This document shows positions 41,259 to 61,277 of a DNA stretch of 64,000 nt, piece after piece. This DNA comes from an uncultured Litoreibacter sp. Lineage in GTDB: Bacteria > Pseudomonadota > Alphaproteobacteria > Rhodobacterales > Rhodobacteraceae. The notes under the pieces are model-generated. The model saw only the letters and a program-made list of their open reading frames with translations, made no database searches and was not told where the DNA came from. Position numbers and translations under genes: made by a program. Location: assembly GCA_947494645.1 (NCBI GenBank), contig CANLVO010000002.1:302359-366358 (forward strand), in the 5' to 3' direction. Numbering within the stretch: position 1 is the stretch's first letter; every line of letters begins with the position of its first letter.

Positions 41259-41455
41259 AACTGGCCTCGAATTTATGCTGATTTACCGGCCCCGCAGTTG
41301 GGCCGATCTGCCGGATAAAGACCCGCTCCGAGACTCAATGTTTCCGTCCTAGAAACACCCAACACCTGCCCAGATTTAGACAGAATTAATTGAGATGGTT
41401 TCGTCAGAGGCGTGTGGGATTGCTGCGTGCTGTGTGATGAAGGGTGAGGTTTGCT

Positions 41456-43648
41456 ATGGGCAACGCACATATTCAAATGGATGAGTCCGAGAGTTATCTC
41501 GATGAACTGAAGCCGGGCACGAAGCTGCTGCACGGCCAATATACCATTAACTGTTTCCTTAACTCTGGTGGCTTCGGGATCACATATCTTGCGACCAACA
41601 GCCTTGATCGCAAGGTGGTTATCAAGGAATGCTTCCCGTCATCCTTCTGTCACCGCAGCCGCGCCATCGTTCAGGCACGCTCCGACGCGCATATCAGTGA
41701 GCTGGAAGCCATTGTGGCGCTGTTCATTCAGGAAGCCCGCAGTCTTGCGAAACTGGATCACCCGAATATCGTTGGCGTGCATGAGGTGTTTGAAGAGAAT
41801 CAGACCGCCTACATGGTGCTCGACTTTGTCGAAGGGCGCGACCTTCTGGATACGCTTGATGACCCGGATCACGGCCTGACCGGCTTGCAGGTCCAAGGCA
41901 TTCTGCGCGACGTGCTGGGCGCGGTTCAATATATCCACGACCGCGGCATTCTGCACCGCGATATCTCCCCAGATAACATCTTGCTCGACGCCGATATGCG
42001 CCCGGTTCTGATCGACTTTGGTGCGGCCCGCGAAGAGGCCAGCAAACAGACCCGCGTTCTGTCGGCCCTGCGTGTCGTCAAAGACGGGTACTCCCCGCAA
42101 GAATTCTATGTCCAAGGCAGCCCACAGACGCCATCGAGCGATCTTTATGCGCTGGCCGCCAGCTTCTACCACCTGATCGACGGCGAACTGCCACCCAACA
42201 GCCAGGCCCGTCTGGCCGCGATTGCTGCGGGCGAAAAAGATACATACGAGCCGCTGGTTGACCGGATCAAGGGCTTCGACCGTAAGTTCCTCGCGTCTAT
42301 CGACAAGGCGCTCGCCATCCTTCCCAAGGACCGTCTGCAATCTGCCGACGAATGGGTCGAGATGCTCGACAAATCCCGCCGCCTGTCCCGCGTGCCGACC
42401 CAGAACGCTCCGCTGTCATCGGCAGCGGCTGCGACATTGGAAGCGCAACGCAAGCCGAGCCTGATGCCATTGCTGAGCTCTGTCGCCGCTGTTGCGCTGC
42501 TTGCTGTCGGCGGTCTTTATCTTGCAGGTTACCTGCCTGCAGGTTCGGGTGCTGAGGAAACGGCGCAAGCGCCAATTGAAACACTTGAGCCATCGCCATC
42601 CGTTTTGGAAGCAGCGCCAGAGGCGTTGAGCGTCGAGACAGCCGAGGCCACTCCGGCGATTGAATGGACCGAATTGCAAAGCGTTGATGCCGCCACCCGG
42701 TTCGCCGCCGCTGAGCAGATCAGAAACGCTGAGGCCGCATCTCAGGTCGCCATTGCACAAGCTGAGGCCGAAACTGAAGCGCGTCTCGCAGAAGAGGCCG
42801 CAGCTGCAGAGCTGGCCGCGGCACAGGAAGCTGAAGCCGCCGAATTGGCTGCTGCTGAGGCGGAGGCAGAAGCCGCGCGTCTTGCTGCTGCTGAGGCCGA
42901 AGCTGCTGCAGAAGCACAGCGTCAGGCCGAATTGGCGGAAGCAGAGGCTGCTGCCGAAGCAGAACGCTTGGCCGCCGCAGAAGCGGAAGCCGCAGCTGCC
43001 GCTGAAGCACAGCGGTTGGCTGAAGCGGAAGCCGCAGCCGAAGCAGAACGCCTGGCCGCTGCTGAAGCGGAAGCCGCAGCAGCGGTGCCACAGCTACCCA
43101 TCATGCAATCAAACTGGAGCGTGGAGAAACCCTTCACCACCGGCGCGGATAATACGCGTATTGCAGAGGTGACCGGTGACGGCCCAAACTGGCTTCGCGT
43201 CGGTACAGAGATTGTTGCGGTGAACGGCACCCCGGTGTCGACCATGACCGAGTTTGACGAAGCCCTTCGCGCCAGCGCCACACCCGGTGACGAGATTTCG
43301 CAGCCCATGGAGCTGACAGTGCGCAGCGGCGGTTCCGAGACCACCGTAGAGTGGGAGCCCGCAATCATTCAGGAAACCCAGCTGGCCAACGGCACGACCT
43401 TCATGACCCGCTTTAGCGGCGAGGTCTGGACCACAAGCGTGACGTCCGTCGCGGAGGGCGAGACGGAGCTGCAGGTGGGTGACGAGGTGATTGCCTATAT
43501 GAGCACGTCAGAGCCGATCATCGAACGGGAAACGCTCTCCAGCATTTTCACGCGGGAGCTGCAGAACGGCACTGACGAGTTCAGCTTTGCGGTCTCCCGC
43601 GACGGCTCGATGTGGGTCGCTTCCTTTACCTATAACGGCAACGTTTAG
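41456..43648 (+). CDS. membrane-spanning Hanks-type Ser/Thr protein kinase with Ala/Glu-rich coiled-coil and C-terminal PDZ-like extracytoplasmic region
   Basis: The ATG at 41456 has a GGGTGAGG RBS. Kinase motifs are GGFGITY, VVIKE, HRDISPDNIL and DFGAA. One TM helix (SLMPLLSSVAAVALLAVGGLYLAGYL) is followed by about 365 aa. Confidence 0.85.
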   Translation: MGNAHIQMDESESYLDELKPGTKLLHGQYTINCFLNSGGFGITYLATNSLDRKVVIKECFPSSFCHRSRAIVQARSDAHISELEAIVALFIQEARSLAKLDHPNIVGVHEVFEENQTAYMVLDFVEGRDLLDTLDDPDHGLTGLQVQGILRDVLGAVQYIHDRGILHRDISPDNILLDADMRPVLIDFGAAREEASKQTRVLSALRVVKDGYSPQEFYVQGSPQTPSSDLYALAASFYHLIDGELPPNSQARLAAIAAGEKDTYEPLVDRIKGFDRKFLASIDKALAILPKDRLQSADEWVEMLDKSRRLSRVPTQNAPLSSAAAATLEAQRKPSLMPLLSSVAAVALLAVGGLYLAGYLPAGSGAEETAQAPIETLEPSPSVLEAAPEALSVETAEATPAIEWTELQSVDAATRFAAAEQIRNAEAASQVAIAQAEAETEARLAEEAAAAELAAAQEAEAAELAAAEAEAEAARLAAAEAEAAAEAQRQAELAEAEAAAEAERLAAAEAEAAAAAEAQRLAEAEAAAEAERLAAAEAEAAAAVPQLPIMQSNWSVEKPFTTGADNTRIAEVTGDGPNWLRVGTEIVAVNGTPVSTMTEFDEALRASATPGDEISQPMELTVRSGGSETTVEWEPAIIQETQLANGTTFMTRFSGEVWTTSVTSVAEGETELQVGDEVIAYMSTSEPIIERETLSSIFTRELQNGTDEFSFAVSRDGSMWVASFTYNGNV
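42953..43080 (+). repeat. in-frame 84-bp-period tandem repeat inside the kinase gene (Ala/Glu-rich)
   Basis: A 44-nt block, gccgaagcagaacgcYtggccgcYgcWgaagcggaagccgcagc, occurs at 42953-42996 and again at 43037-43080 with 3 mismatches. The surrounding 42.72-43.09 kb is degenerate GCN/GAR repeat encoding AEAEAAAEAERLAAAEAEAAAA. Confidence 0.8.
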
Positions 43649-43684: not shown

Positions 43685-44536
43685 ATGAAATACATCCGCG
43701 ATCTACTTTCTCGCAAATCTGGTGGGGCGACCAAGCCCGATCCGGTTGAGCCAACCCCGGTTGATCTGGCGCCCCATGAGGAGCTGCCGCAAGATACCGG
43801 CCCCGTCATGCTGAGCGCCAAAGAACTGCGCGCCCAAGAGGCCGAGAGAGAGCGCAAATTTGCAGAAGTTGAAGCCGCTGCATTGGCCCAAGCCGCCGAA
43901 GAGGAGGCAAAAGCCGCCGCAGATATCCTAGAGAAAATCAACGCCAGCGTCGTCGAAGAAGCTGCCACGCCCGCAGCCCCAGTGAACATCTGGGACATCG
44001 AAGATGATGAGACCGAGGTGGCCGAAGCGCCTGAGCCCGCACCAACGCCGCGCCGTCGTCGCAACCAGACCCGTGTTCTGGGCTTTGACAATGCCGAAGG
44101 CGACGTCGTCTCGATGTTTGACAAGGCAGAGAAGACCAGCGGTGCTGTGCGTGCCAAATTCCCTGTCGGCTGGATGCTTGTGGTAGAGGGTCCGGGTCGC
44201 GGTGAATGTTTCGCGCTCGAGGCCGGGATGTCGCAAATTGGCCGTGGTGATGACCAGGCCATCAAGCTGGATTTTGGCGACAATTCGATTTCCCGAGTAA
44301 ACCATGCCGCGGTTGTCTATGACCCTGAGACCCACAACTTTATGCTGGGCCACGGCGGCAAGAAGAACATTGTTCGTCTGAACGGTGCGCCTGTCATCTC
44401 GAACGAGACGCTGAGCACCGGCGATCGGATCAAGCTGGGTGAAACGACGCTCCACTTCGTTGCCTTGTGCACTGAGGAGTTCAACTGGAACGACGATTCC
44501 AACCCGGAGGAGAGCGAAGATGTGGCGATCGCCTGA
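43685..44536 (+). CDS. FHA-domain protein
   Basis: 283 aa ORF with an acidic, Ala-rich disordered N-terminal half. The C-terminal FHA pattern is IGRGDDQAIKLDFGDNSISRVNHAAVVYD...NIVRLNG...L..GD.I.LGET.L.F. Confidence 0.85.
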   Translation: MKYIRDLLSRKSGGATKPDPVEPTPVDLAPHEELPQDTGPVMLSAKELRAQEAERERKFAEVEAAALAQAAEEEAKAAADILEKINASVVEEAATPAAPVNIWDIEDDETEVAEAPEPAPTPRRRRNQTRVLGFDNAEGDVVSMFDKAEKTSGAVRAKFPVGWMLVVEGPGRGECFALEAGMSQIGRGDDQAIKLDFGDNSISRVNHAAVVYDPETHNFMLGHGGKKNIVRLNGAPVISNETLSTGDRIKLGETTLHFVALCTEEFNWNDDSNPEESEDVAIA

Positions 44537-45488
44537 ACCAAGATTTGACGTCGCCTCCGCCATTTGCCAGGGCGGGCGCGATTACCAAGAAGACGCCATC
44601 ATCACCGATTTCCCGTTTGGAACCGACACCGGCATGGTTGTGCTGGCTGATGGCATGGGCGGCCATGCTGCCGGCGATGTCGCCTCGAAGATCGTGGTGA
44701 CGGAGGTTTTCTCGGAGCTGAAGTTCCAGAGCGCCAACTTTGTGCAGCAGGAAAAGAAGATCCCCAGCCTAATGGCCAATGCCGCCTCGCAGGCCAATCT
44801 CGCGGTGAGCGAGCACGTGTCCCATAACCCTGCCGTGCGTGGCATGGGGGCCACTTTGGTCTCATTGGTCTTGGTCGAAAACCGGATGTTCTGGATGTCG
44901 ATTGGCGACAGCCCGCTTTATCATTTCCGGTCCGGCAAAATGAAACAGCTGAACGAAGACCATTCGATGGCGCCGCAGATCGACTTCATGGCCAAGCAGG
45001 GCCTTTTGGACGCCGAAGCCGCCAAGAACCACCCGGATCGCAACGCGCTGACTTCCGTCATTCTGGGCGGGCGTGTGGCCAAGTCAGATTGCCCCGGCAC
45101 ACCGTTCGAGGTGCAGGTTGGCGATATCATCGTGGTGTCGAGCGACGGGCTGCAATATCTGGAAGAGGCGAAAATTCAGCAGATCCTGCATCGCTACCGT
45201 CGTCGCAAGAGCGCCGAGATTGCTGGCCACCTGCTTGCCGCCATCGAGACACTCGCGGACCCGGATCAGGACAACGTATCGCTGGCGGTCATCAAACTGA
45301 ACCACAACAAACCGATGGAACGTGCTATCGCGCCGAAGCCTGTCGACGCCGCGGACCATAGCGCCGCCAACTCGACCCGCGTGGTCAATCTTGATGAGGT
45401 CAAGAAAGATCAAACAGATCGCGTATCGGCGGAGACGTCCCAAGCTGACGGATCGCCCTCCAAAGTGGCGGCTGGCTCGTCAAGATGA
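44520..45488 (+). CDS. PP2C-family Ser/Thr phosphatase
   Basis: The ATG at 44520 has a GGAGGA RBS and overlaps the FHA gene by 17 nt. PP2C motifs are RDYQEDA, VLADGMGGHAAGDVAS and VVSSDGL. Confidence 0.85.
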   Translation: MWRSPEPRFDVASAICQGGRDYQEDAIITDFPFGTDTGMVVLADGMGGHAAGDVASKIVVTEVFSELKFQSANFVQQEKKIPSLMANAASQANLAVSEHVSHNPAVRGMGATLVSLVLVENRMFWMSIGDSPLYHFRSGKMKQLNEDHSMAPQIDFMAKQGLLDAEAAKNHPDRNALTSVILGGRVAKSDCPGTPFEVQVGDIIVVSSDGLQYLEEAKIQQILHRYRRRKSAEIAGHLLAAIETLADPDQDNVSLAVIKLNHNKPMERAIAPKPVDAADHSAANSTRVVNLDEVKKDQTDRVSAETSQADGSPSKVAAGSSR

Positions 45489-46720
45489 TGGACCAAGCTG
45501 ATAGCCGCGACGGTGTCAGTGAACTTCGCAGCGCCATCGCGCATGCTGGCCTGAGCGAGCCGCTCAAAGCCCGTGCACAAGCCATTCTGGAGCAGATCGA
45601 ACGCCCCGTGCGGCTGGCCTTGTTTGGCCTGCCGGGGAGCGGAAAATCCCAGATCCTCAACTTTCTGGCGGGCGCTGATGTGCTGCCAAAGGACACGCCG
45701 CTTCCAACCCTGCAGTTGAGCTATGGAGCAGAAGCCGTCGCCGAATGCACGCTTCCTGATGGGACTGTTCAGATCTTGCCGATGGACGACATGCAGGCAA
45801 TTTCAGCGCTCAAGCCCGCTTTTATCAACGCCAAGATGCCGCTTCCTGCGCTGAGAAAGATCTCTATTCTCGAGGTCCGCGCTGGTGCCTCCCCGACGGA
45901 GCAGAAACGCGCCATGGGATGGGCCTCCAAGCGAAGCGATGTCGCCCTTTGGTGCACCAAGGGCCCGTTCGGGCGCGATGAACATGCCCTTTGGGTACAG
46001 ATGCCCGCAGCCTTGCAAGACCACGCCTTCCTGATCATGACCCATGCGGACAAGCCCTCCGTCGAAGAGGCCTATCCGGGCCGAGCGGAACATGCTGAGC
46101 GTACGATGCGGGATCACTTCCAGAAGGTTTTGCCGATTGGGACGCAAAAAGCGATCTCTGCCCGCAACAAAGATGGCACGGTCGATAAAGAGACACTGCG
46201 TGGCTCTGGCGGCATGGCGCTGATCGCGGCAATCCTGCGGGTGGTAGAAGCCGGGCAGCAGGGCGCGCGCGACCAGGCGGATGTCTTCCTTCGTCAGATC
46301 GAGTTCACCCCGCCCCAACAAACGCCAACCGCCCCACCGCCGCCGGAACCGCCCAAGGTTGAGGCCACCCAAGAGCCGCAATCCACAACACTTGGAGCGG
46401 CGTCTCGGGAGGCGTGCGAACAGGCGGTCGCCCAACTGACCGCCGAAGGCACGATGATGGCGGAGGCACTGGGCAGCGTCGGTTTGGATGATGCGGAGGT
46501 TGTGGACATCTGCGTCGACACCGTTGTCTGGCTTGCCGACTTTCTGGCAGAGAGCGGTGAACCCGGTGATCAGGCCATGTCGAAGCTTCGCGCAACGGCC
46601 GTGGATGCCGCCGATTTGGTACAGTTGATCCAGCTTGAAACCAGCGAAACCGTCGCCAGCGACAGCGTCAGTATCATGGTTCAGGTGAAGCAGGAAATGC
46701 AGCAAACACTGGCGGCTTAG
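45485..46720 (+). CDS. short dynamin-like P-loop GTPase paralog with degenerate G3 motif
   Basis: ATGA overlap with the PP2C stop. G1 is GLPGSGKS and G4-like is THAD. It is collinear with the 49060 paralog (..LWCT.....E..W..P......L.T..DK). EVRAG replaces DFPG. A Pro/Thr-rich linker, FTPPQQTPTAPPPPEPP, is present. Confidence 0.6.
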   Translation: MMDQADSRDGVSELRSAIAHAGLSEPLKARAQAILEQIERPVRLALFGLPGSGKSQILNFLAGADVLPKDTPLPTLQLSYGAEAVAECTLPDGTVQILPMDDMQAISALKPAFINAKMPLPALRKISILEVRAGASPTEQKRAMGWASKRSDVALWCTKGPFGRDEHALWVQMPAALQDHAFLIMTHADKPSVEEAYPGRAEHAERTMRDHFQKVLPIGTQKAISARNKDGTVDKETLRGSGGMALIAAILRVVEAGQQGARDQADVFLRQIEFTPPQQTPTAPPPPEPPKVEATQEPQSTTLGAASREACEQAVAQLTAEGTMMAEALGSVGLDDAEVVDICVDTVVWLADFLAESGEPGDQAMSKLRATAVDAADLVQLIQLETSETVASDSVSIMVQVKQEMQQTLAA

Positions 46721-46888
46721 CACCTCGTTGCGCCTTGGTTTCCAATAAATATCAAAATGTCGCCGCATTATTGTCGCGTTGGAGGAGCCATTATCCTCTG
46801 GACCAGAACAATCTCGGCTTCTGCGCTGCACTTTGCCGACATGTACGAAACGTAACCTAGAAAGACCTTGTTTGAGGGTGGTGATTTT

Positions 46889-49063
46889 ATGATCGAAGAT
46901 GTTCAGGCAGACGCCTCAGAAAGCGTGGATGCCAACCCGACCCCTCAGCAGCCTGCCCTGACCCCGGCTTTTGCCAAACACGGTCTGGAGCAGATGGACG
47001 GCTTTGCCGAAAGCATGCACAACCTAGAAGAGGCGCTGCTCGACATTGAAAGCTTCGGTGGTCGCGAGGCCGAGAAGAAGGCCGAAACCCTCATCCAATC
47101 CGCACATGAGTTCGAACCCTCGATTACCATGATCGGGCAGATCAAGTCGGGGAAGACCTCCTTGGTCAACGCCATGGCCGGACGGCCAGAGCTGCTTCCT
47201 GCTGATGTGAACCCTTGGACTTCCGTCGTGACGTCGCTGCACCTCAACAGCTTGCGCAAGTCGGATGACCCTGTCGCGTCCTTCCGGTTCTTTGACCAGG
47301 GCGAGTGGGACTTCCTTGTGGAAAACGGTGGCCGCATTGGCGAATTGTCCAGCCGCGCCGGCGCTGATGACGAGCTGGTAAAGGTCCGCGAACAAATCGC
47401 TGAGATGCGGGAAAAGACGAAAACCCGCCTTGGCAAGAAGTTCGAACTGCTTCTGGGTCAAACCCATAATTACCGCCACCTCGATGAAGAGCTGATGCAG
47501 CGCTACGTCTGCATGGGTGACGATTTTGGCGACCCTGAGATGCTGGATGCCCAAGGGCAGTTTGCCGACATCACGAAATCGGCTGACCTGTATCTTGATG
47601 CGCCATCCATCCCGATGCCGCTGTGCATCCGCGACACGCCCGGCGTGAACGACACGTTCATGATGCGAGAGCAGATCACGATCAATGCGCTGCGTGGCAG
47701 CCGGATCTGTGTGGTCGTGCTGTCTGCCAACCAAGCACTGAGCTCGATGGATATGGGCTTGATCCGACTGATCGCCAATATCGATTCCCGCGAAGTTGTG
47801 GTCTTCGTCAACCGCATCGACGAGCTGCCAAACCCGGCGGAACAGATTGACGAAATTCGCGAATCCATCCTCAAGACGCTGGCCGACAATAACGGCCCAA
47901 GCGGGCTGCATCTGGTCTTTGGATCCGCCTATTGGGCGAACATGGCATTGCAGGAAACGATCGACGATCTGGTCCCTGATAGCGCCGCGTCACTTGCAAA
48001 CTACGCAAAAACCAAGCTGGCGGATGGGGCAGATATCACCCCTGCCGACGTCTGGGATATGTCTGGCCTGCCCGCCCTGTTTGACGCCATTTCCGAGCGG
48101 ATCAATGTGGGCGAAGGCGCGCAGGTGATCACTGGCTTGCGCAAACGTGCGCTGAACCATCTGCACGGCTTGAAAGCATCGAGTAATATCGTGTCGATGC
48201 GGATCGAGAACCAAGACCTGAAGATGATGGACCCGGCCGTTTTGGCCGAACGTCTTGACGAGATTGAAGACCGCAACATGGCCGCGTTGGACACGGCGCT
48301 GAAGCCGTTGTTCGAAAATTACACAGCGCGGATCGATCAGGCCCATAAACGGTTCCTGGATCGTGCTCTGGAGTCGCTGCTTCAGCATCTCGAGAAGCAT
48401 GGCGACAAAGAGCTTTGGCAGTACTCCCCTGAAGGGCTGCGCATGCTGTTGCGCTCGAGCTACCACTCGATGTGCAAGAAGACCGCCAATACCTGCGTTC
48501 AAGCGTTGAGCACCGCCGCCGACGATCTGTCTTCGACCTATTGCGATCTTTTGTCGATCGAGGTGGAAGGGTTCTCTGTTTCTGCGCCGGAAGCGCCAAG
48601 CTTCCCGCCACCGGTGGCATTGGGTCAGACCATCGCGCTGGATCTGCAAAGCTCATGGTGGAAAGGCTGGTGGCAACGCCGCAAGGGCTACCGTGCCTAT
48701 GCCGACAGCTTTTACGAGCTGATCGAGGCCGAAACCGCGCCGATCCTCAACGACATGAAAAGCGTGCAGGTCGACGAAATTCGTCGCATTGCGATGGCAC
48801 AGCTGCAGGACTTCCTGCTGGAGCAAGGCGGCATCCTGACCGATGTCAGCAACAAGTCGCAAATCTCGGTTGGCGAGCTGAAAGGCTTGTTTGGCATCAC
48901 CGCGCAGGAAGAGCGCGAAGCAATTTTTGACGTCCTGTTCGACGAATTTGCCGTGGATGACGAGACCCCGGACGGGCCTGAGCCCGATAGCGGACCTGCG
49001 CGTCCGACCCGGCCAACGCGTCCACAATCGACAGGATCATTCAACAAAGGAGAGGCGGCATGA
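46889..49063 (+). CDS. dynamin-family large GTPase (bacterial dynamin-like protein)
   Basis: The ATG at 46889 follows GAGGGTGGTGA. G1 is GQIKSGKTS, G3 is DTPGVND and G4 is NRID. A long helical stalk of about 450 aa contains the Trp/Arg-rich motif SSWWKGWWQRRKG. Confidence 0.75.
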   Translation: MIEDVQADASESVDANPTPQQPALTPAFAKHGLEQMDGFAESMHNLEEALLDIESFGGREAEKKAETLIQSAHEFEPSITMIGQIKSGKTSLVNAMAGRPELLPADVNPWTSVVTSLHLNSLRKSDDPVASFRFFDQGEWDFLVENGGRIGELSSRAGADDELVKVREQIAEMREKTKTRLGKKFELLLGQTHNYRHLDEELMQRYVCMGDDFGDPEMLDAQGQFADITKSADLYLDAPSIPMPLCIRDTPGVNDTFMMREQITINALRGSRICVVVLSANQALSSMDMGLIRLIANIDSREVVVFVNRIDELPNPAEQIDEIRESILKTLADNNGPSGLHLVFGSAYWANMALQETIDDLVPDSAASLANYAKTKLADGADITPADVWDMSGLPALFDAISERINVGEGAQVITGLRKRALNHLHGLKASSNIVSMRIENQDLKMMDPAVLAERLDEIEDRNMAALDTALKPLFENYTARIDQAHKRFLDRALESLLQHLEKHGDKELWQYSPEGLRMLLRSSYHSMCKKTANTCVQALSTAADDLSSTYCDLLSIEVEGFSVSAPEAPSFPPPVALGQTIALDLQSSWWKGWWQRRKGYRAYADSFYELIEAETAPILNDMKSVQVDEIRRIAMAQLQDFLLEQGGILTDVSNKSQISVGELKGLFGITAQEEREAIFDVLFDEFAVDDETPDGPEPDSGPARPTRPTRPQSTGSFNKGEAA

Positions 49064-50175
49064 GCGCCACCACCCGCAAGCCCCGCATTGCCCTGATGGG
49101 CGAGTTCAGCGCCGGGAAAAGCACGCTTTCAAACCTCTTGCTGGGTGCACGCCCCCTGCCTGAGAAGGTGACGGCCACGCGTCTGTCTCCGGTCTGGATG
49201 TCAGAAGGCACCGATGACCCTTACCGCATCGACATTGACGGCACCCAAGAGTCCGTCTCGCTGGATGCGCTTGAAGGTATTTCAGTCGAGGAAACCCGCG
49301 TGATCCGGCTGTTCTTCGAAGCCGACATTCTGGGCGCATGTGATCTGATCGACTTCCCGGGCATTTCTGACCCGAACATGTCTGCCGAGGTGTGGCAGCG
49401 CATGTTGGATGAGGTGGATGCGGTTTTGTGGTGCACCCACGCAACCCAAGCCTGGCGTCAGTCCGAGGCTGCCGTTTGGGACACTATCCCAGAGGCCGTC
49501 CGCGAGAAATCCATCCTGCTGGTCACCCGTTTTGACAAGCTCACCACGGAGCGCGACAGGTACCGCGTGATGGCCCGGCTGAACAAAGAGACACAAGGCC
49601 TGTTCGGGGCGACGTTCCCGATCTCTCTGACCCAAGCTTTGGCCGCGGGCGACGACAGCGAAGCGTTTGAAGCCAGTGGCGGCGGCGCATTCCTTGAGCA
49701 CTTCATCAGCATGATTGAAGAGCTGAGCAAGACCGTCGAGCATTCGTCGAAATCCCTTTTTGCAACAACCACCGCCAGCAGTGTGTTGGTTGCACCGAAC
49801 GAGCCTGTCTCTTTGGACGATGAACCAGAGGTCGACGCAGATATCGACGTTGCGACTCCGGAGCCCGCGATGGCGGAGCTTCGCTCGGTTCCTGATGAGC
49901 CAACGGACATCGGACAGCCGGAAGAGGTTGCACCACAAGCTGAGCCAGCACCGGAGCAATCCGACGACGAACTTCGTGTCATCCCACGTCGCATTCAACA
50001 TGCGTCCGGCGCACGTTCTGAACGCCCCTCCCGCCCGCAGACAAAAGAGCAGGTGATGGAAATGATGCGTGCAAGCCGGCCGGTGCCCAAGCCGACCGCA
50101 TCGAATGAGAGCCTCAACTCCATTTTCCACAGCAAGGGGTCCGCGGCTGCTGAAGATGAGGCCACCTCAATTTAA
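49060..50175 (+). CDS. short dynamin-like GTPase paralog
   Basis: ATGA overlap with the preceding gene and an AAAGGAGAGG RBS. G1 is GEFSAGKST, G3 is DFPGISD and G4-like is TRFD. The C-terminal 120 aa or so are acidic and Pro/Ser/Thr-rich (disordered). Confidence 0.7.
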   Translation: MSATTRKPRIALMGEFSAGKSTLSNLLLGARPLPEKVTATRLSPVWMSEGTDDPYRIDIDGTQESVSLDALEGISVEETRVIRLFFEADILGACDLIDFPGISDPNMSAEVWQRMLDEVDAVLWCTHATQAWRQSEAAVWDTIPEAVREKSILLVTRFDKLTTERDRYRVMARLNKETQGLFGATFPISLTQALAAGDDSEAFEASGGGAFLEHFISMIEELSKTVEHSSKSLFATTTASSVLVAPNEPVSLDDEPEVDADIDVATPEPAMAELRSVPDEPTDIGQPEEVAPQAEPAPEQSDDELRVIPRRIQHASGARSERPSRPQTKEQVMEMMRASRPVPKPTASNESLNSIFHSKGSAAAEDEATSI

Positions 50176-50252: not shown

Positions 50253-50588
50253 ATGGTTCAAGACGCTCTGAACGCAGTGTGCGATGATATCGAAGGATGC
50301 GAATCCCTCGCCTTTGTCGACTTGTCGACGCGCATGGTGCTGGTGTCGAACGCTTCCACCCGCGAAAGCCAGGACACGCTGAACACGCTGTGCGCGGAAG
50401 CCGCGCTGCTGCTGGAAACGGGCCAGATCGCGATGGCTGCCAGCTCGGATCACGTGCACCTCTTTATGCGCTCTCCAACAGAGCCTTCGGACGCTTTGTG
50501 CTGCATCTGCGCGCCCGGCACGAATTTTTCGGCTCTCGTCCCCGCAGCGCAAGCTTGTCTTTCCACAATCAGCGGTGACGGTTCATGA
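50253..50588 (+). CDS. small protein, possibly Roadblock/LC7 (MglB-like) fold
   Basis: 111 aa ORF. The pattern IEGCESLAFVDLSTRMVLVSNA....LCAEAALLL......MAASSDHVHLFM resembles the Roadblock/LC7 alpha-beta-alpha core. The call rests on pattern recognition only. Confidence 0.35.
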   Translation: MVQDALNAVCDDIEGCESLAFVDLSTRMVLVSNASTRESQDTLNTLCAEAALLLETGQIAMAASSDHVHLFMRSPTEPSDALCCICAPGTNFSALVPAAQACLSTISGDGS

Positions 50589-51361
50589 CCGACGACAACC
50601 AGCTGACAGGCAAGATCGACGCACTGATCCGCGACGAGGCGTTTGAAGACGGCGCGATGCTTCTTGGCGACGCCGGCACGCCCGAGGTTACCACCGCGAT
50701 GCTGGAGAGCATCGACATGACGATGCTGCCCCGTGACATGGTGTTTTCCGTGGGCGCGTCCTTTGTGACATTGGCCGTCAGCGGCAAACGTGTGCGTCAC
50801 GTCACGGCGGCCTCGGATGATTTGGAGGCGCAGGAATTGATCGGGCAGCCGGTGAATGTCGATGATGCTGACACGTTGCAGAAACTTGCCTCTGTCCTGC
50901 TGGCGCTGGCCGCGATGAACGGAAAGATGACCATGGCCCGGCAGCCTGTTTCAGCGGCGCTGGATGTTGGAAATGTGGGCGTCGGATTGCGCGGGTTGAG
51001 CAAGGCGTTGGGGCCGAAACCTGCAAAGGTGACAAGCTCTGTGTCGACCCTGATGGGCGATCTAAACGACGTGCTTGGCGGGTATGCTCAGATAAACGAC
51101 GGCTCCATCACCCCGGTGAAGGGCGAGGCCGCTTTGGCAGAGGCGTTTGCCGCTCTGGAGCCGAAATGGTCAGAGCTTTCGCGCTCCCACGACAGGCTTC
51201 GTGGCTGGGCAGACAAGGACAGATTGCTGACGCTGGATGGCGTCTTGCCAGATGACGCGTTGGCACATTTTGTTTCCCTTAAGGGATCGCAAGTTGTGAT
51301 GGCGACGGCGAAAGGCAGCCTGGCGGATGTGGCCACGGCATGGGCCCGCGCGACGGAATAG
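50585..51361 (+). CDS. hypothetical protein translationally coupled to the Roadblock-like ORF
   Basis: 258 aa ORF with ATGA overlap to the upstream gene and coding-like composition. I recognise no family motif. Confidence 0.55.
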   Translation: MTDDNQLTGKIDALIRDEAFEDGAMLLGDAGTPEVTTAMLESIDMTMLPRDMVFSVGASFVTLAVSGKRVRHVTAASDDLEAQELIGQPVNVDDADTLQKLASVLLALAAMNGKMTMARQPVSAALDVGNVGVGLRGLSKALGPKPAKVTSSVSTLMGDLNDVLGGYAQINDGSITPVKGEAALAEAFAALEPKWSELSRSHDRLRGWADKDRLLTLDGVLPDDALAHFVSLKGSQVVMATAKGSLADVATAWARATE

Positions 51362-51550: not shown

Positions 51551-53119
51551 ATGCCGATCTCCCCATTCAAGAATTCGACTTTGCGCGCATTGACGCTGCT
51601 TGGTGCAGCGATGCTGCCAACATATGGCATCGCAGATGGTATCGCCCTGACGACCACCGATGGCAGCGTGAATGTGGTTGGTGAATTCGTGAAGTTTGAA
51701 GAGGGCTACTACATCGTGAAAACCGATCTGGGCGAAATGCGCATCGCCGCATCGCAGGTTCTGTGCGAGGGCGAAGACTGCCTGCCGCTGGCCCCCCAGA
51801 TCAAAATCGCCGGATCAGACATCATCGGCCTTGAGCTGATGCCACAGCTGATCGCAGGCTACGCAAGTTCCATGAACGCCACCGCTGACATGCAAGCCGA
51901 AGACGCGCAGACCACTCTGTCGATTGTCGAGCCAAACGGCGCAACGCGTGCCAGCTATCAGGTGACGTCGACCACATCCAACGACGCGTTTGAAGCGCTG
52001 AGCGCCGGTGAAGCAGAGATCGGGATGACGTCGCGCAAGATCTCCCCCGCGGAAGCACGTGTCCTGAACCGGGCGGGCGCAGGAGATATGGCTGACCCAG
52101 AGCGTGAGCATATCGTCGCCGTCGACAGCGTCGTGGCAATCACCCATCCCGATAACCCTGTTGACACATTGAGCGTCGACGATCTTGAAAAAATCTACTC
52201 TGGCCAGATCAGAAACTGGTCGCGTCTGGGTGGCCCTGATCTTCCGATCGTCTTGGTGTCGCGCGAAGATGGGTCCGGTATTCGCAGCGCCCTTGAAGAA
52301 GGGCTGTTTGCAGGCAAGCGTGCACGCGTTGCCAACGGTGCTTTGATCGCGACGGATACAAAAACTGCCGTCTCTATGGTGAACAAGAACCCCGGTGCGT
52401 TGGGCTATGTCAGCTCTGCGTTCAAGGGTGACACCAAACCGATGTCGCTTGTGAATGAGTGCGGTATGACCCTAACGCCAGATGCGTTCTCTGCCAAAAC
52501 AGAAGAATACGCCTTTCAGCGCCGCCTGTACCTTTACAACCGTGGCGACAATCTGAGCGAAGACGCGGCAAGTTTCCTAGACTACGCGACATCCGCCGAA
52601 GCTGACGCGCTTGTCAGCGAAGCCGGGTTCACAAATTTTGGCGTTGCCGTGCGCGAACAGCCGCTTGATGGCGCCCGTGCCCGCGCGATGTTCAATCCGA
52701 ACGTCCAAGGCTACGAGATGGAAACCATCCACAAGATGCTGCTGTCGATGATGGATCATGACCGTTTGTCGACAACGTTCCGGTTCCGCACAGGGTCTAC
52801 TACACTGGACGCCCGTGGGCAGGTCGATATGGATCGCCTTACGACTTATCTGGAAGAGATGCCGGCCGGCACCAAAGTCGTCTTTGTCGGGTTTTCTGAC
52901 AATGTTGGCTCGTTCTCCAAGAACCGCGACCTGTCTGAGGGCCGCGCCGAGCAGGTCAAGAAAGCTCTGGCTGCCTTTGCCGGTGACCGCCTGAAGGGCA
53001 TCTCTTTGGCACATACAGGCTACGGCGAGGTTGCGCCGACCGCGTGCAATACCGCTGAAAAAGGTCGCCGTATGAACCGCCGCGTCGAGGTCTGGATCCA
53101 GAAATCCGCCAACAGCTGA
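51551..53119 (+). CDS. periplasmic PstS-like (type 2 PBP) domain fused to C-terminal OmpA-like peptidoglycan-binding domain, paralog 1
   Basis: GAGGAAA RBS and a signal peptide (LRALTLLGAAMLPTYGIA). It has a PstS-family pattern (IYSGQIRNWSRLGG..I..VSREDGSGIRS, GALGYVS) and an OmpA_C pattern (GFSDNVGS...NRRVEVWIQ). Confidence 0.75.
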   Translation: MPISPFKNSTLRALTLLGAAMLPTYGIADGIALTTTDGSVNVVGEFVKFEEGYYIVKTDLGEMRIAASQVLCEGEDCLPLAPQIKIAGSDIIGLELMPQLIAGYASSMNATADMQAEDAQTTLSIVEPNGATRASYQVTSTTSNDAFEALSAGEAEIGMTSRKISPAEARVLNRAGAGDMADPEREHIVAVDSVVAITHPDNPVDTLSVDDLEKIYSGQIRNWSRLGGPDLPIVLVSREDGSGIRSALEEGLFAGKRARVANGALIATDTKTAVSMVNKNPGALGYVSSAFKGDTKPMSLVNECGMTLTPDAFSAKTEEYAFQRRLYLYNRGDNLSEDAASFLDYATSAEADALVSEAGFTNFGVAVREQPLDGARARAMFNPNVQGYEMETIHKMLLSMMDHDRLSTTFRFRTGSTTLDARGQVDMDRLTTYLEEMPAGTKVVFVGFSDNVGSFSKNRDLSEGRAEQVKKALAAFAGDRLKGISLAHTGYGEVAPTACNTAEKGRRMNRRVEVWIQKSANS

Positions 53120-53207: not shown

Positions 53208-53369
53208 ATCAGAGCACTGTTGACGTCTTAGATTCGCCATAATGCCCCGGGGATTCGCGGCATTTGATCGAAAACAAAGTTAATATTCCCTAAATCAACA
53301 GATTGGTGCCCCAGAAGAGACGGATTCTGACGCGAGATTTTCCCCGTACCAATGATTGGGGATACACCA

Positions 53370-54350
53370 ATGAAGAATTTGACAAGACGAGACGCGGTAT
53401 TCGGTGTCGCGACATTCGCAGCCGCAGGGATGATGACAAGCTCCCTTGCTGCGCAAACCGCCCGACGCGCCGCGAAATTTCAAGTTGCTGGCCAAGAGCC
53501 AGAACCCGAAGTTGTAAAAGAAGAGATTTTGGTTCCGCCGCTGCTGGGCGCGGAAGACCTGAAGACGCTGATCGAGATTGGCGATCCACAGATCGTAGAC
53601 ATCCGTCAGCCAAAGGCTTTCCTGTGGAACTATAGCTACGCGGCAGGGCATATCCCGAACGCCGTGAACGTACCATTCGCCAAGTTCCGCAAGCTTTGGA
53701 ACGATCCGCTGGCGACGCCTTCGGAAGAAGATTTCACCAATTTGGTACAATCGATGGGTCTGACCTATGACCGCCCCGTGGTGCTGGTGCATTCCAGCGG
53801 CGCGAAAGGGAATTTCGGTTTTGCCACTTTCGCCTATTGGACCCTGAAGACCGCGGGTTTCACCAACATGGCCATCCTGAACGGCGGTATTGCCGAATGG
53901 AAAGCCTCTGGCGGCGAGATGACCCAAGACAAGGTCAAAATCGTCAAGTCTGACACGGTGGCCTTCGTCAACGACGAATGGCTGGCGACGCATGAAGATG
54001 TGGACGCGGTTCTTGATGGAACCAGCACCGCGCAGCTTCTGGACGCCCGGCCGTTGCATCAGATCATGGAAGACGCCTCCCTTGAGGGCTCCTTTACTCT
54101 GAACGCCGAAGACCTTGTCGCTGGCGAAAACGGACAAGCCGCAGATGATCTTTCGATCTTCATCAAGATCAAACAGGCCGGTCTGGATTGGGAATATGAT
54201 GAGGTCATCACCTACTGCAACAACGGCGCTCTCGCGACTGTTGACTGGTTCATGGCCAACGAAATCGCGGGCATCCCGAATGTCAAAGTCTATGGCCATT
54301 CGCTGAAAGCCCGTCGGAAGGCAGAGAAGGCGAGGCAGCAAAATGGATAA
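53370..54350 (+). CDS. Tat-exported tandem-rhodanese sulfurtransferase
   Basis: The ATG at 53370 gives MKNLTRRDAVFGVATFAAAGMMTSSLAAQ, a twin-arginine signal. There are two rhodanese repeats, and the second carries the active-site loop YCNNGALAT. Confidence 0.8.
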   Translation: MKNLTRRDAVFGVATFAAAGMMTSSLAAQTARRAAKFQVAGQEPEPEVVKEEILVPPLLGAEDLKTLIEIGDPQIVDIRQPKAFLWNYSYAAGHIPNAVNVPFAKFRKLWNDPLATPSEEDFTNLVQSMGLTYDRPVVLVHSSGAKGNFGFATFAYWTLKTAGFTNMAILNGGIAEWKASGGEMTQDKVKIVKSDTVAFVNDEWLATHEDVDAVLDGTSTAQLLDARPLHQIMEDASLEGSFTLNAEDLVAGENGQAADDLSIFIKIKQAGLDWEYDEVITYCNNGALATVDWFMANEIAGIPNVKVYGHSLKARRKAEKARQQNG

Positions 54351-54420
54351 GTCCGTTACAAAAAATACCCGAGCAATGAGCGAAAACGCCCCGAAACGCG
54401 GGCAAGCATGGAGACGCAAT

Positions 54421-56142: not shown

Positions 56143-56973
56143 ATGACCGGCTACAATCCAGAGGATGACGGGGCGCAAATGTCGTTCGCCAAGGACATGT
56201 CCTATACCGACTATCTGTCGTTGGACCCGATCCTGGGCGCGCAGAATCTGCAATCCACCGCGCATGATGAGATGCTGTTCATCATCCAGCATCAGACGTC
56301 GGAACTTTGGATGCGGCTGTGCCTGCACGAGCTGTCGGTGGCCCGCGCGTCTCTGTCGCAAGGTGCGTTTCAGGAAAGTTTCAAAATGCTGACCCGTGTG
56401 GCGCGGATATTCGAGCAGCTCAATAACGCGTGGGATGTTTTGCGGACGATGACGCCCAGCGAATATACAGAATTCCGCGACGATCTTGGCGCATCTTCCG
56501 GCTTTCAGTCGCACCAATACCGGTTGATCGAGTTCATCCTCGGAAACCGTAATCGCGCCATGATGAAGGTGCATGAACACCGCCCCGAACTGCACCACAT
56601 GCTGGGGCAGGAGCTGACGACCAAATCGCTTTACCATGTCGTTCTGGACCGGCTGGGGGACGCGATGGGCGAACCGTTTCCGGACGATGCCTACCGCATG
56701 GACGCGCCGCATCAGGCGCATGACGACGTGGCTGCCGCATGGATCAAGGTCTATGAGGATCCGCATGCCCATTGGCACCTCTATGAGCTGGCGGAAAAGC
56801 TAGTCGACCTGGAGGACTACTTTCGCCGCTGGCGCTTCAACCACGTCACCACCGTGGAACGCATCATCGGTTTCAAACGCGGCACTGGCGGCACATCAGG
56901 GGTAAAATACCTGCGGCGCATGCTTGAGGTCGAACTTTTCCCAGAACTCTGGAACATACGAGGCGCATTGTGA
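56143..56973 (+). CDS. kynA: tryptophan 2,3-dioxygenase
   Basis: 276 aa ORF with an AGGGAGG RBS. Motifs [28 protein letters not shown] and GTGGTSG are typical of bacterial TDO. Confidence 0.9.
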
Positions 56974-59269: not shown

Positions 59270-59272
59270 TTA

Positions 59273-59292
59273 TTGGTTGCAACCGTAACTAA
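59273..59292. promoter_or_regulatory. candidate MarR/HmgR operator upstream of the marR gene
   Basis: The perfect palindrome GGTTGCAACC (59275-59284) is followed by GTAACTAA. The reverse complement (TTAGTTAC) matches the motif repeated upstream of hmgA. Confidence 0.4.
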
Positions 59293-59310
59293 GCAGACTA
59301 GATTTGGGTC

Positions 59311-59736: not shown

Positions 59737-59760
59737 GTGCAGAGCACCTGTTTTGCGCTT

Positions 59761-59800: not shown

Positions 59801-59811
59801 AGGAAACCAAT

Positions 59812-61173: not shown

Positions 61174-61174
61174 C

Positions 61175-61276: not shown

Positions 61277-61277
61277 C

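Follow-up and report, generated by a model that had tools for sequence, protein, structure and literature searches.

Three dynamin-superfamily genes at positions 45485-50175 (+ strand) of the window, the whole 64,000-nucleotide stretch of DNA analysed from an uncultured marine Litoreibacter sp. (Rhodobacterales), belong to an eight-gene module that is vertically conserved in the Rhodobacterales and in which a full-length dynamin-like protein (DLP), D731, is accompanied by two truncated G-domain paralogs: G371, which is catalytically complete by its motifs, and G411, whose G3 motif is degenerate throughout its family. The original prediction of one long and two short dynamin-like GTPase genes in this region is borne out, and the strings it quoted are present where it placed them. 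We propose that the G domains of these proteins pair heterotypically and that both the non-canonical G411 and Ser/Thr phosphorylation modulate this pairing, and give the proposal as a whole a probability of about 0.5. The genes of the module, the spacer within it and its downstream neighbor are:

41444..43648, + strand: receptor-type Hanks Ser/Thr kinase (734 aa; Pfam Pkinase 2.2e-31)
43685..44536, + strand: FHA-domain protein (283 aa; FHA domain at residues 166-259, disordered N-terminal half)
44439..45488, + strand: PP2C-type Ser/Thr phosphatase, Stp1-like (Pfam PP2C_2 9e-12)
45485..46720, + strand: G411 (411 aa; dynamin-superfamily G domain at residues 42-241, N-terminal helices)
46721..46888, + strand: intergenic spacer G411-D731, upstream of the conserved D731 start
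46868..49063, + strand: D731 (731 aa; full-length bacterial DLP by its motifs)
49060..50175, + strand: G371 (371 aa; G domain at residues 6-215 plus one helix)
50253..50588, + strand: o111 (predicted Roadblock/LC7 fold, alpha-beta-beta-alpha-beta-beta-beta-alpha)
50585..51361, + strand: o258 (conserved protein)
51551..53119, + strand: fusion protein with an N-terminal signal-like segment, a PstS-like periplasmic binding domain and an OmpA peptidoglycan-binding domain

The order kinase-FHA-PP2C-G411-D731-G371-Roadblock-fold protein (o111)-o258 is found at ~70 of 80 Rhodobacterales loci, spans more than 10 genera and is likewise conserved on Leisingera plasmids. In the ORF list, starts and stops overlap by 4 nt at the PP2C/G411 (ATGA), D731/G371 and o111/o258 junctions. 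The divergence of the module is in step with that of the flanking housekeeping genes (at locus L002, 92% for IDH versus 89% for D731); across genera, D731 and PP2C retain 60-78% identity, PP2C being the most conserved protein of the module (70-78%). No GC anomaly was seen at the module. The order kept across genera, the flank-like divergence and the normal GC point to a vertically inherited cellular function. The same features weigh against the alternative that the module is an anti-phage or abortive-infection defense system, in which an Eleos-like dynamin system would be joined to a defense-type Ser/Thr kinase. The PADLOC models LeoA and LeoBC do match D731 (3.6e-10 and 1.9e-6, respectively, reaching residues 495/569) and G371 (~1e-5), the mad6 and PD-T4-6 kinase models match the kinase (1e-47 to 1e-46), and plasmid copies exist. 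However, these matches are generic and incomplete, extending only over the kinase domain and a portion of the G domain or stalk, while G411, the FHA protein, PP2C, o111 and o258 have no PADLOC match; the carrier plasmids are non-mobilizable, and a search of 50,697 phage records gave no match to D731. With the shared gene order and its vertical pattern also against it, a role in defense is distinctly unlikely, and a vertically inherited cellular function is preferred.

The G411-D731 spacer, which may contain an internal promoter or the 5'UTR of a second transcription unit, is ~157-163 nt long in most orthologous loci and contains conserved blocks; no conserved small ORF was found in it across these loci, and it has no match in Rfam. 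In Leisingera sp. S132, the module is split exactly at the G411/D731 junction into two convergent units, and two other substrate-binding proteins are lodged inside it. The PstS-OmpA fusion (Pfam PBP_like_2 3e-31; OmpA 1.3e-9) adjoins the module in some lineages only: its gene lies 3' of the module in most Litoreibacter-type loci (L002-L005, L008 and L075), Cognatiyoonia, Actibacterium and Aestuariibius, and it precedes the module in Marivita.

The conserved start of D731 is probably the ATG at 46889 (M8), and the protein carries the following motifs and segments:

47135-47161, + strand: G1 GQIKSGKTS (residues 90-98)
47210-47233, + strand: switch I NPWTSVVT
47633-47653, + strand: G3 DTPGVND (residues 256-262)
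47810-47821, + strand: G4 NRID (residues 315-318)
48650-48700, + strand: Trp/Arg-rich segment SSWWKGWWQRRKGYRAY, conserved in the family
48998-49036, + strand: tail ARPTRPTRPQSTG / RPTRPTRPQSTG (residues 711-723), lineage-specific

G1, switch I, G3 and G4 are all invariant in 75 D731 orthologs, in agreement with the canonical G1, G3 and G4 first noted in the 731-aa protein. D731 matches Pfam Dynamin_N above the cut-off (1.2e-11), and its best matches in the PDB are 5owv_A (Cj-DLP1; 1e-9 by profile) and BDLP. Its sequence is that of a motif-complete, full-length DLP of the BDLP/Cj-DLP1 type, with a helical stalk predicted from the partial PADLOC matches. No trans-membrane (TM) helix was found in D731, and the segment SSWWKGWWQRRKGYRAY is a candidate membrane-binding paddle. 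The tail is missing from most orthologs.

The motifs of the two short proteins are:

49099-49125, + strand: G371 G1 GEFSAGKST
49165-49182, + strand: G371 G2 region
49351-49371, + strand: G371 G3 DFPGISD
49525-49539, + strand: G371 G4 TRFDK
49978-49995, + strand: G371 motif V-x-P-[RK]-R-[IV], conserved, within the disordered Pro/Ala-rich tail
45626-45649, + strand: G411 P-loop GLPGSGKS (residues 48-55)
45701-45715, + strand: G411 candidate switch-I Thr
45872-45886, + strand: G411 degenerate G3 EVRAG (residues 130-134)
46040-46051, + strand: G411 G4 THAD (residues 186-189)
residues 243-271: G411 long helix
residues 273-305: G411 disordered linker, Pro/Ala/Glu-rich, FTPPQQTPTAPPPPEPP
residues 305-410: four C-terminal helices of G411, the protein ending in LAA

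The G motifs of G371 are invariant in its family alignment, and they indicate a catalytically complete G domain. The protein matches Pfam Dynamin_N above the cut-off (1.5e-9) and the PDB chain 5owv_C (6e-9 as a single sequence and 4.4e-13 as a profile), and those of its 2469 homologs that are named at NCBI are mostly called 'dynamin family protein'. Its tail is acidic and Pro/Ser-rich in the Litoreibacter protein; the tail motif V-x-P-[RK]-R-[IV] is found in 180 of 184 family members and also in distant plasmid copies. Chance does not account for the collinearity first noted between the two short proteins (BLASTP E=4e-15, 24% identity over 221 aa; hhalign of the family profiles, probability 99.5% and E=6e-23 over 225 columns), with the correction that the first string of each collinear pair belongs to the 411-aa rather than the 371-aa protein. 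D731 is more distant from both than they are from each other, and the profiles of both short proteins align with Campylobacter jejuni DLP2 (5owv_C; ~4e-13) along the entire G domain. G371 and G411 are mutual paralogs and truncated derivatives of a partner-type (Cj-DLP2/LeoA-subtype) G domain.

Pfam MMR_HSR1 also matches G371 above the cut-off (28.6 bits) and G411 weakly, the NCBIfam Era and Der models match weakly, and a few homologs are named '50S ribosome-binding GTPase' in databases, which could mean that the short proteins are ribosome-associated GTPases of the Era/EngA/MMR_HSR1 type that merely adjoin a dynamin gene. This is scarcely credible. The Era and Der matches are confined to the P-loop or to residues 99-196, whereas the Cj-DLP2 match covers the whole G domain with an E-value seven orders of magnitude better; a KH domain and a second G domain are absent, neither Era nor Der is among the best 50 Foldseek matches of the G411 model, and the short genes are strictly syntenic with D731, the G371 start overlapping the D731 stop. 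Profile comparison places all three proteins in the dynamin superfamily, not with Era/EngA, with Dynamin_N above the cut-off for D731 and G371.

The G411 AF2 model (pLDDT 90.2, pTM 0.65) consists of a G domain and a helical bundle, and its best 50 Foldseek matches are dynamin-type large GTPases without exception, including IniA (3.6e-14), BDLP (4.7e-11), mitofusins (MFN1/2 ~1e-10; mini-mitofusin TM up to 0.46), Cj-DLP1/2, Fzo1, EHD, Drp1, OPA1, SynDLP, dynamin and IRG-type GTPases. Instead of packing against the G-proximal helices, the C-terminal helices might form an independent docking domain on the linker ahead of them, a tether that varies from 14 to 549 aa in the family. The P-loop is retained in 250 of 253 members, Thr or Ser stands 20 residues past it in 89%, and G4 is T[KRH]xD in most. 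In contrast, DxxG has become E-[VIL]-x-[ATVM] across ~250 members: G3 begins with Glu in ~239 of 241, and only two members have Gly at the DxxG position. Leisingera plasmid copies with 28-35% identity are in the same motif state, including the missing DxxG. By alignment, then, DxxG has disappeared from essentially every G411 member, while G1, the candidate G2 Thr/Ser and G4 persist. The hhalign register sets E130 of G411 against D98 of G371 and A133 against G101 of DFPG. The degenerate G3 thus survives proper alignment, and EVRAG does replace DFPG as first described; the Gly of EVRAG, however, lies one position off the DxxG glycine and is not conserved. Since the altered G3 is shared by ~250 members, the loss is ancient and not a sign of decay, and such family-wide degeneracy makes a regulatory or non-canonical GTPase a reasonable reading of the G411 sequence.

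Alternatively, G411 could still hydrolyse NTP, using a non-canonical switch II: the Glu that ends beta-3 would take the place of the Walker-B Asp or be the catalytic base, or a partner G domain would complete the site in trans. E130 and V131 are invariant, and selection acts on G1, the Thr/Ser at +20 and G4; activation of dynamin-family enzymes is known to come from G-domain dimerisation, which supplies elements in trans (PMC6104087), and the EHD proteins among the Foldseek matches testify to varied nucleotide chemistry within the superfamily. The glycine whose backbone NH touches the gamma-phosphate is nevertheless missing in more than 99% of members, and no alternative catalytic residue was identified. 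We consider an active enzyme unlikely, though less so than a defense role for the module, and retain G411 as a regulatory or non-canonical GTPase.

The kinase, whose start is possibly the ATG at 41456, is syntenic in ~70 loci and provides the sole TM segment of the whole module:

residues 171-178 and 191-193: HRD and DFG, respectively, in the N-terminal kinase domain
residues ~340-364: single TM helix

Past the TM helix, it continues into a periplasmic Ala/Glu-rich coiled coil with a TolA-like low-complexity match and a C-terminal region that resembles PDZ only weakly (PDZ_2 0.0023, below the cut-off). The FHA protein (Pfam FHA 2e-6, above the cut-off; Yop-YscD_cpl 6e-7) is also syntenic and ends in -IA in 72 of 72 orthologs. 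PP2C matches NCBIfam Stp1_PP2C_phos at 2.9e-43; the overlap of its ORF with the FHA gene leaves the start uncertain. What ties the kinase to the DLPs is the strict conservation of gene order. The Thr/Pro-rich segments of the original prediction are present in the Litoreibacter proteins, but only Pro/Ala richness is a family-wide property of the disordered segments. Thr is not enriched in the linkers and tails (6.2% versus 5.3%; 6.4% versus 7.2%), and no conserved Thr was seen in their alignments. With the D731 tail also mostly absent, conservation lends no support to the suggestion that these segments are kinase substrates and FHA targets.

o111, syntenic in 74 loci, has no match in Pfam, and sequence models fail to recognize its fold. 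Its AF2 model (pLDDT 91.4) is that of a Roadblock-fold protein: the best Foldseek matches are the Roadblock/LC7 protein 3kye (TM 0.77-0.80), MglC, MglB and LAMTOR/Ragulator, with TM of 0.75-0.80 to 3kye, MglB and LAMTOR. o258, present in 53 loci and in plasmid copies, is not related to o111 and has no match in Pfam, NCBIfam, PADLOC or the PDB.

By analogy with bacterial DLP pairs, we propose that D731, its G domain paired with those of G371 and G411, may act on the inner membrane; other such pairs are active only as heterotypic complexes and would be the model for D731 and its short paralogs. G371 would be the hydrolysing partner. G411 would bind guanine nucleotide without the switch-II glycine that senses the gamma-phosphate and could therefore regulate or cap the DLP assembly while cycling slowly or not at all, its level perhaps additionally set by proteolysis through the conserved C-terminal LAA. 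o111, possibly with o258, may form a GTPase-regulating platform, while the TM kinase, FHA protein and PP2C would let a signal from the periplasm or envelope control how the machine assembles, via reversible Thr phosphorylation. The output may be membrane remodelling, such as repair, fusion or vesiculation.

A literature search found no paper in which bacterial DLPs are connected with Roadblock proteins or with an operon for a kinase, FHA protein and PP2C, and none describing the eight-gene combination. The best structurally solved sequence relatives are Cj-DLP1 and Cj-DLP2 of C. jejuni (5OWV/5OXF), neither of which is active alone (PMC6104087). D731 resembles Cj-DLP1 (chain A), and both G371 and G411 match the G domain of Cj-DLP2 (chain C). 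Like the module, the C. jejuni pair consists of adjoining genes for two DLP subtypes that are cytosolic and have no TM helices. Unlike in C. jejuni, the Cj-DLP2-type partner is duplicated and truncated here: G371 is a G domain only, and G411 is a G domain with a helical bundle but without trunk, paddle and DxxG. Most of the 119-aa assembly domain is missing from D731, whose G1 lies ~80 residues nearer the N-terminus. The module further adds the kinase, FHA protein, PP2C, Roadblock-fold protein and o258.

The original prediction likened the trio to LeoA/LeoB/LeoC, an intact DLP plus a second DLP split into two complementary polypeptides; in favor are a similar gene count, with three consecutive dynamin-related genes of which one is long and two are short, and the weak PADLOC matches. 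In enterotoxigenic Escherichia coli (ETEC), LeoC contains the P-loop, switch I and a TM anchor of a DLP whose switch II and stalk lie in LeoB (PMC4159319). G411 and G371, in contrast, are complete paralogous G domains that can be aligned along their whole length; both are without a TM helix, and their genes flank the long gene rather than abut each other. Such identity is rejected on architecture as very improbable. Also unlike the module, kinase, FHA and PP2C are not listed for Leo/Eleos loci (PMC4159319; PADLOC LeoA, LeoBC).

In Nostoc BDLP1, mycobacterial IniA and mini-mitofusin, which rank among the top Foldseek matches, as in G411, the G domain is flanked by helices in a neck-like bundle (the four-helix bundle HD1). 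These proteins keep DxxG, whereas G411 lacks it along with trunk, paddle and TM region and has a disordered linker ahead of its C-terminal helices. Hydrolysis-impaired paralogs of the kind proposed for G411, which keep nucleotide binding and tune active, co-assembled paralogs, are represented by SEPT6-group septins and by GMS-type IRGM, which regulates GKS IRGs; in SEPT6 the defect affects the switch-I Thr, in IRGM the P-loop Lys. These are eukaryotic proteins of other families with defects in other motifs.

MglB-MglA, the Streptomyces conservon CvnA-D and Ragulator-Rag share the Roadblock/LC7 fold with o111, and in conservons the Roadblock gene likewise lies beside GTPases and a membrane sensor kinase. 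Known Roadblock partners are, however, small Ras-like or Rag GTPases, whereas o111 adjoins dynamin-type G domains. A TM Hanks kinase, PP2C and FHA protein are encoded together, as in the module, in PpkA/PppA/Fha1 (T6SS) and PknB/PstP/FhaA-FhaB (actinobacteria), where they gate the assembly of envelope-associated machines post-translationally. A scan of ORFs from 33.8 to 63.5 kb revealed no genes for a T6SS or for cell division, and the co-conserved clients of the module, unlike those of the PpkA and PknB pathways, are dynamin-like GTPases.

The three dynamin-like proteins (DLPs) of the window are a 731-aa full-length DLP (D731), a 371-aa G-domain protein (G371) and a 411-aa protein with a degenerate G3 motif (G411). 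Their genes stand in one row with those encoding a Ser/Thr kinase (STK), an FHA protein, a PP2C phosphatase, a small protein with a predicted Roadblock fold (o111) and a conserved protein of 250-270 aa (o258). The features of this row and its surroundings are:

Before the kinase, forward strand: genes for a PfkB kinase, a monomeric isocitrate dehydrogenase and an FAA hydrolase
41444-43648, forward strand: Ser/Thr kinase
43685-44536, forward strand: FHA protein
44439-45488, forward strand: PP2C phosphatase
45485-46720, forward strand: G411, dynamin-type G domain plus helical bundle
46868-49063, forward strand: D731, full-length DLP (the conserved start is probably the ATG at 46889)
49060-50175, forward strand: G371, dynamin-type G domain with a disordered tail
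50253-50588, forward strand: o111
50585-51361, forward strand: o258
51551-53119, forward strand: PstS-like/OmpA fusion; a second paralog is at 54343-56004, forward strand
53352-54350: rhodanese gene between the two PstS-like/OmpA paralogs, which have signal-like N-termini

When 185,579 species genomes were searched with the G411 profile, 80 loci were found; 79 of them are titled Rhodobacterales or unclassified metagenome-assembled genomes, the exception being binned as Luminiphilus. The genera include Litoreibacter (closest, with 75-85% identity), Marivita, Yoonia, Loktanella, Cognatiyoonia, Albidovulum, Gemmobacter, Actibacterium, Aestuariibius and Marinosulfonomonas. About 70 of the 80 loci, essentially all of those with enough flanking sequence, have the order STK-FHA-PP2C-G411-D731-G371-o111 on one strand; in 74 loci o111 comes right after the dynamin genes, o258 follows in 53, and the genes flanking the module vary by lineage. 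Among the closest genomes, divergence of the module parallels that of the neighbouring housekeeping genes, and the window, with a GC content of about 60%, shows no compositional anomaly. The complete eight-gene module is also found on non-mobilizable plasmids of Leisingera sp. S132 (NZ_CP083558.1) and L. caerulea (NZ_CP081073.1), and G411 homologs are present on Ruegeria plasmids. Models of the defence-system tool PADLOC align to D731 (LeoA to residues 252-495 and LeoBC to residues 325-569), and the module could thus be read as a defence system. This reading is unlikely, as the PADLOC matches are generic, the module is conserved vertically across many genera and no D731 homolog was found in the phage collection searched.

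The genes of the module are closely packed, with 4-nt ATGA overlaps at PP2C/G411, D731/G371 and o111/o258. The longest PP2C open reading frame begins about 100 nt before the FHA gene ends (44439-44536), an overlap that most loci share by tblastn; the FHA protein ends with -IA in all 72 orthologs, and the PP2C start given here is provisional. Between G411 and D731 lies a spacer (46721-46888) that is about 160 nt long in most loci, including 157-163 nt in most Yoonia/Loktanella-type loci, and only 58 nt in L. caerulea. It contains conserved blocks (e.g., GTTTCCATTATGGCAATAAA...ATTTGGCG) with no open reading frame conserved across loci and no Rfam match. A spacer of this length and conservation that lacks a conserved open reading frame fits two transcription units, and it may represent an internal promoter or a 5'UTR. 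In Leisingera sp. S132 the module is broken exactly at G411/D731 into the convergent units STK-SBP-SBP-FHA-PP2C-G411 and D731-G371-o111-o258, with two substrate-binding-protein (SBP) genes after the kinase. A promoter and terminator scan for operon boundaries returned sites no more frequently than in shuffled sequence, and no EcfG-type promoter (GGAAC-N-CGTT) was found near the module.

The only match to the EcfG-type promoter in the window is at 10144-10169 on the reverse strand, a stress-sigma-like motif just upstream of the gene for the sRNA SorX (singlet-oxygen resistance RNA X; Rfam, 75.3 bits; 10058-10131, reverse strand). A PhyR-like anti-anti-sigma response regulator of the general stress response is encoded at 36231-37007 on the forward strand, 4.4 kb upstream of the kinase, with no sign of a link to the module. 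Genes for tryptophan 2,3-dioxygenase, kynureninase, a cupin, homogentisate 1,2-dioxygenase and fumarylacetoacetase (56143-62534, forward strand) belong to aromatic amino-acid catabolism and are unrelated to the dynamin module.

D731 matches Dynamin_N of Pfam with 45.3 bits (cut-off 27) and carries the motifs GQIKSGKTS (G1), NPWTSVVT (switch I), DTPGVND (G3) and NRID (G4). Invariant across 75 orthologs are G1 GQIKSGKTS, switch I LLPADVNPWTSVVT, G3 DTPGVNDT and G4 VNRID. Its closest solved relatives in PDB searches are DLP1 of Campylobacter jejuni (Cj-DLP1; 5owv_A) and the BDLP of Nostoc, with the sequence matches confined to the G domain. The roughly 400 residues C-terminal to G4 are a candidate helical neck/trunk (stalk), into which the PADLOC LeoA and LeoBC alignments extend as far as residues 495 and 569. 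Prediction of transmembrane (TM) helices found none in D731. A Trp/Arg-rich segment, LDLQSSWWKGWWQRRKGYRAY / SSWWKGWWQRRKGYRAY, in which most residues are at least 90% conserved among the 75 orthologs, is a candidate membrane-binding paddle.

The original prediction that the two short proteins are also of the dynamin type is borne out by profile and fold searches. G371 scores 38.5 bits with Dynamin_N (cut-off 27), and its family profile matches C. jejuni DLP2 (Cj-DLP2; 5owv_C) with 4.4e-13 over residues 11-221, while its match to Era is partial (5.6e-6). Searches with the single G411 sequence gave only marginal matches (Dynamin_N, 0.038); the G411 family profile matches 5owv_C with 4.3e-13 over positions 25-222, the entire G domain, and its Der/EngA matches are restricted to the P-loop. 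The AF2 model of G411, built with 29 homologs, is confident (pLDDT 90.2), and its 50 best Foldseek matches in the PDB are without exception dynamin-type large GTPases, aligned over about 450 columns. The relatives found include IniA (3.6e-14), Cj-DLP1 and Cj-DLP2, mitofusins, Fzo1, BDLP, EHD, Drp1, OPA1, SynDLP, dynamin and IRG-type GTPases. An identity of either short protein with Era or EngA (Der) was rejected on these searches, in which the Era/Der matches are partial and weaker than those to DLPs; every NCBIfam score for Era or Der lies far under cut-off, and neither a KH domain nor a second G domain was detected with Pfam.

Every peptide string quoted in the original prediction is present in the window. 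The claimed collinearity of the short proteins stood, with a BLASTP match of 4e-15 (24% identity over 221 residues), but the strings had been attributed the wrong way round, the first of each pair belonging to the 411-aa protein. Comparison of the two family profiles by hhalign gives a probability of 99.5% (E=6e-23, 225 columns). G411 and G371 are paralogs, each with a complete G-domain fold, and neither is a fragment; D731 is far more remote from both (hhalign probability 62%). In the C. jejuni structure 5OWV, chain A is Cj-DLP1, a BDLP1/mitofusin-like protein of 84.5 kDa, and chain C is Cj-DLP2, a protein of the LeoA subtype of 71.2 kDa (PMC6104087). Because D731 matches chain A and both G371 and G411 match chain C, D731 is assigned to the DLP1 type and the two short proteins are derived from a DLP2-type G domain. 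The proposed likeness to a full-length plus split LeoA/LeoB/LeoC architecture is wrong in kind. LeoC, with the P-loop, switch I and a TM anchor, and LeoB, with switch II and the stalk, are complementary parts of one DLP (PMC4159319), whereas G411 and G371 are whole G domains that align with each other over their full length, and no TM helix was found in either.

The G domain of G371 (residues 6-215) is extremely conserved, with GEFSAGKST, T38/T40, DFPGISDPN and T156xxD159K invariant in the family alignment. Past the G domain there is one helix and no helical stalk or GED. As the conserved region ends near residue 235 and the remainder is a variable tail, G371 is a G-domain-only relative, an incomplete DLP. 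The tail, of 25-233 aa across the family, is disordered and Pro/Ala-rich, and its sole conserved feature is V-x-P-[RK]-R-[IV] (49978-49995 in the window), present in 180 of the 184 tails. In its fuller form this motif reads [R]-V-x-P-[RK]-R-[IV], and an RP-x-RP-like stretch frequently comes after it. The motif is kept in the Leisingera plasmid copies, whose G411s are 28-35% identical to that of the window, and looks like a docking motif.

G411 consists of two N-terminal helices, the G domain (residues 42-241), a long helix (residues 243-271), a linker and four C-terminal helices. The degenerate G3 noted in the original prediction was confirmed: E130-V-R-A133 is placed by hhalign opposite D98-F-P-G101 of G371 and is also aligned with DTPG of Cj-DLP2, and by DSSP on the model E130 is at the end of beta-3, the Walker-B position. 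Motifs were counted in 253 family members, collected by a word-indexed search (111 homologs) and an exhaustive HMMER search (585 representatives below 1e-30). The P-loop GxxxxG[KR][ST] is intact in 250 of the 253 and G4 is T[KRH]xD in most members, while Glu occupies the first G3 position in about 239 of 241 and the glycine of DxxG is present in only 2 of about 241. This motif state, including the G3 change, is shared by the distant Leisingera plasmid copies, and the loss of G3 is by its distribution across the sequences a family trait and not a private lesion. A concurrent loss of G2, suggested by a gap in the hhalign alignment, was dropped: residue +20 after the P-loop is Thr in 194 and Ser in 28 of 250 members (89%), and HMMER pairs it with the switch-I Thr of Cj-DLP2, so that the two alignments differ on whether it corresponds to the G2 Thr. 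Since the P-loop and G4 are kept and the DxxG glycine is gone, G411 most likely still binds Mg-GTP but has lost the glycine through which switch II is coupled to the gamma-phosphate, and a pseudo-GTPase is plausible and better grounded than before. The main rival reading, that G411 retains activity through a non-canonical form of catalysis, appears unlikely.

The C-terminus of G411 is -LAA in 147 of 253 family members (46709-46717 in the window), and an -AA ending is found for G411 in 75 of 80 genomic loci versus 14 of 74 for D731. The resemblance of this end to the ssrA/ClpX C-terminal degron suggests that G411 may be turned over by regulated proteolysis.

The Thr/Pro-rich segments of the three proteins had been proposed as targets of the kinase and the FHA protein, a proposal that composition and alignments do not support. 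The G411 linker, 33 aa in the window protein and 14-549 aa across the family, is disordered, and the linkers and tails are enriched in Pro, Ala and Glu but not in Thr: Pro is enriched 2.4- to 4-fold in G411 linkers and G371 tails, whereas Thr accounts for 6.2% of G411 linkers versus 5.3% of the folded parts, and for 6.4% versus 7.2% in G371. No conserved Thr was seen in the aligned linkers and tails of the G411 and G371 families, and the C-terminal tail of D731 is lineage-specific, occurring only in Litoreibacter and Marivita. Conserved Thr-rich target segments were rejected on these grounds.

In the kinase the HRD and DFG motifs are intact. It has a single TM helix (residues 340-364), and its periplasmic part is composed of an Ala/Glu-rich coiled coil and a region of sub-threshold similarity to PDZ. 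In several lineages a periplasmic binding protein is encoded beside the module, the PstS-like/OmpA proteins in the window and another substrate-binding family in Leisingera S132, which hints that the kinase may read a periplasmic ligand. Searches of Pfam, NCBIfam, PADLOC and the PDB with the o111 sequence were all empty, and none of the 21 family members searched had a Pfam Robl_LC7 match at E<=1. The AF2 model (pLDDT 91.4) has the alpha-beta-beta-alpha-beta-beta-beta-alpha order of Roadblock/LC7 topology, and Foldseek matches it to the Streptomyces Roadblock/LC7 protein 3kye (TM 0.77-0.80), MglC, MglB and Ragulator LAMTOR, with overall TM scores, MglB and LAMTOR included, of 0.75-0.80. Judged by its model, o111 is a cryptic Roadblock/LC7-fold protein. 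Sequence searches with o258 in Pfam, NCBIfam, PADLOC and the PDB, including a PDB profile search, were likewise empty; a second Roadblock domain in o258 was rejected, as hhalign against the o111 family also gave nothing.

Alongside the observed homologies, motif states, architectures and gene linkage of the module, we propose a mechanistic picture to which we give about even odds (roughly 0.5), its weight lying mostly on the architecture; any single step deserves clearly lower odds. D731 would work at the inner membrane by heterotypic G-domain pairing, G371 would be its minimal hydrolysing partner, and G411, able to bind nucleotide but cycling poorly, would act as a regulator or a cap. A reversible, envelope-derived signal would come from the kinase together with the FHA protein and PP2C, and o111 might serve as a GTPase-regulating platform. 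The most specific version is doubtful as a whole: a phospho-regulated, three-part dynamin machine in which the periplasm-sensing Hanks kinase, an FHA reader and a PP2C eraser would time D731-G371 pairing, with a non-hydrolysing, nucleotide-binding G411, possibly turned over by ClpXP via its LAA end, and the Roadblock-fold protein as built-in negative/positive regulators.

Bacterial DLPs are widespread, their triggers and regulators are largely obscure and their physiological roles are mostly inferred. NCBI annotates G371 (most homologs) and D731 as 'dynamin family protein', and G411, o111 and o258 mostly as 'hypothetical protein'. A literature search for DLPs with a kinase, FHA protein, PP2C or Roadblock protein found nothing relevant. 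In the literature searched we found no description of a DLP trio with a bare-G-domain member and a family-wide G3-less paralog, of DLPs strictly coupled with a Hanks kinase, an FHA protein and PP2C, or of a cryptic Roadblock-fold protein beside dynamin-class GTPases. The module is present in cultivable strains of the Roseobacter group, such as Yoonia vestfoldensis DSM 16212, Marivita hallyeonensis DSM 29431 and Leisingera caerulea.

Operon-paired bacterial DLPs are already known. In this module the partner DLP occurs in two reduced forms, one with nothing but the G domain and one whose G domain lacks G3 and is joined to a neck-like bundle; this natural experiment makes the minimal needs of heterotypic G-domain pairing testable. 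Phospho-control is central in the regulation of eukaryotic dynamin and Drp1; the module ties dynamins to Ser/Thr phosphorylation by conserved genetic linkage, phospho-control of bacterial DLPs being absent from the literature searched. Roadblock regulators are known from small Ras-like and Rag GTPases, and o111 beside dynamin-class GTPases would extend this regulator family past them. If the proposal is correct, this would be the first bacterial dynamin system shown to combine a signalling input of its own with a conserved pseudo-GTPase subunit and with a Roadblock-type regulator that acts on dynamin-class G domains, and regulatory pseudo-GTPase subunits would have arisen in prokaryotic dynamins, too.
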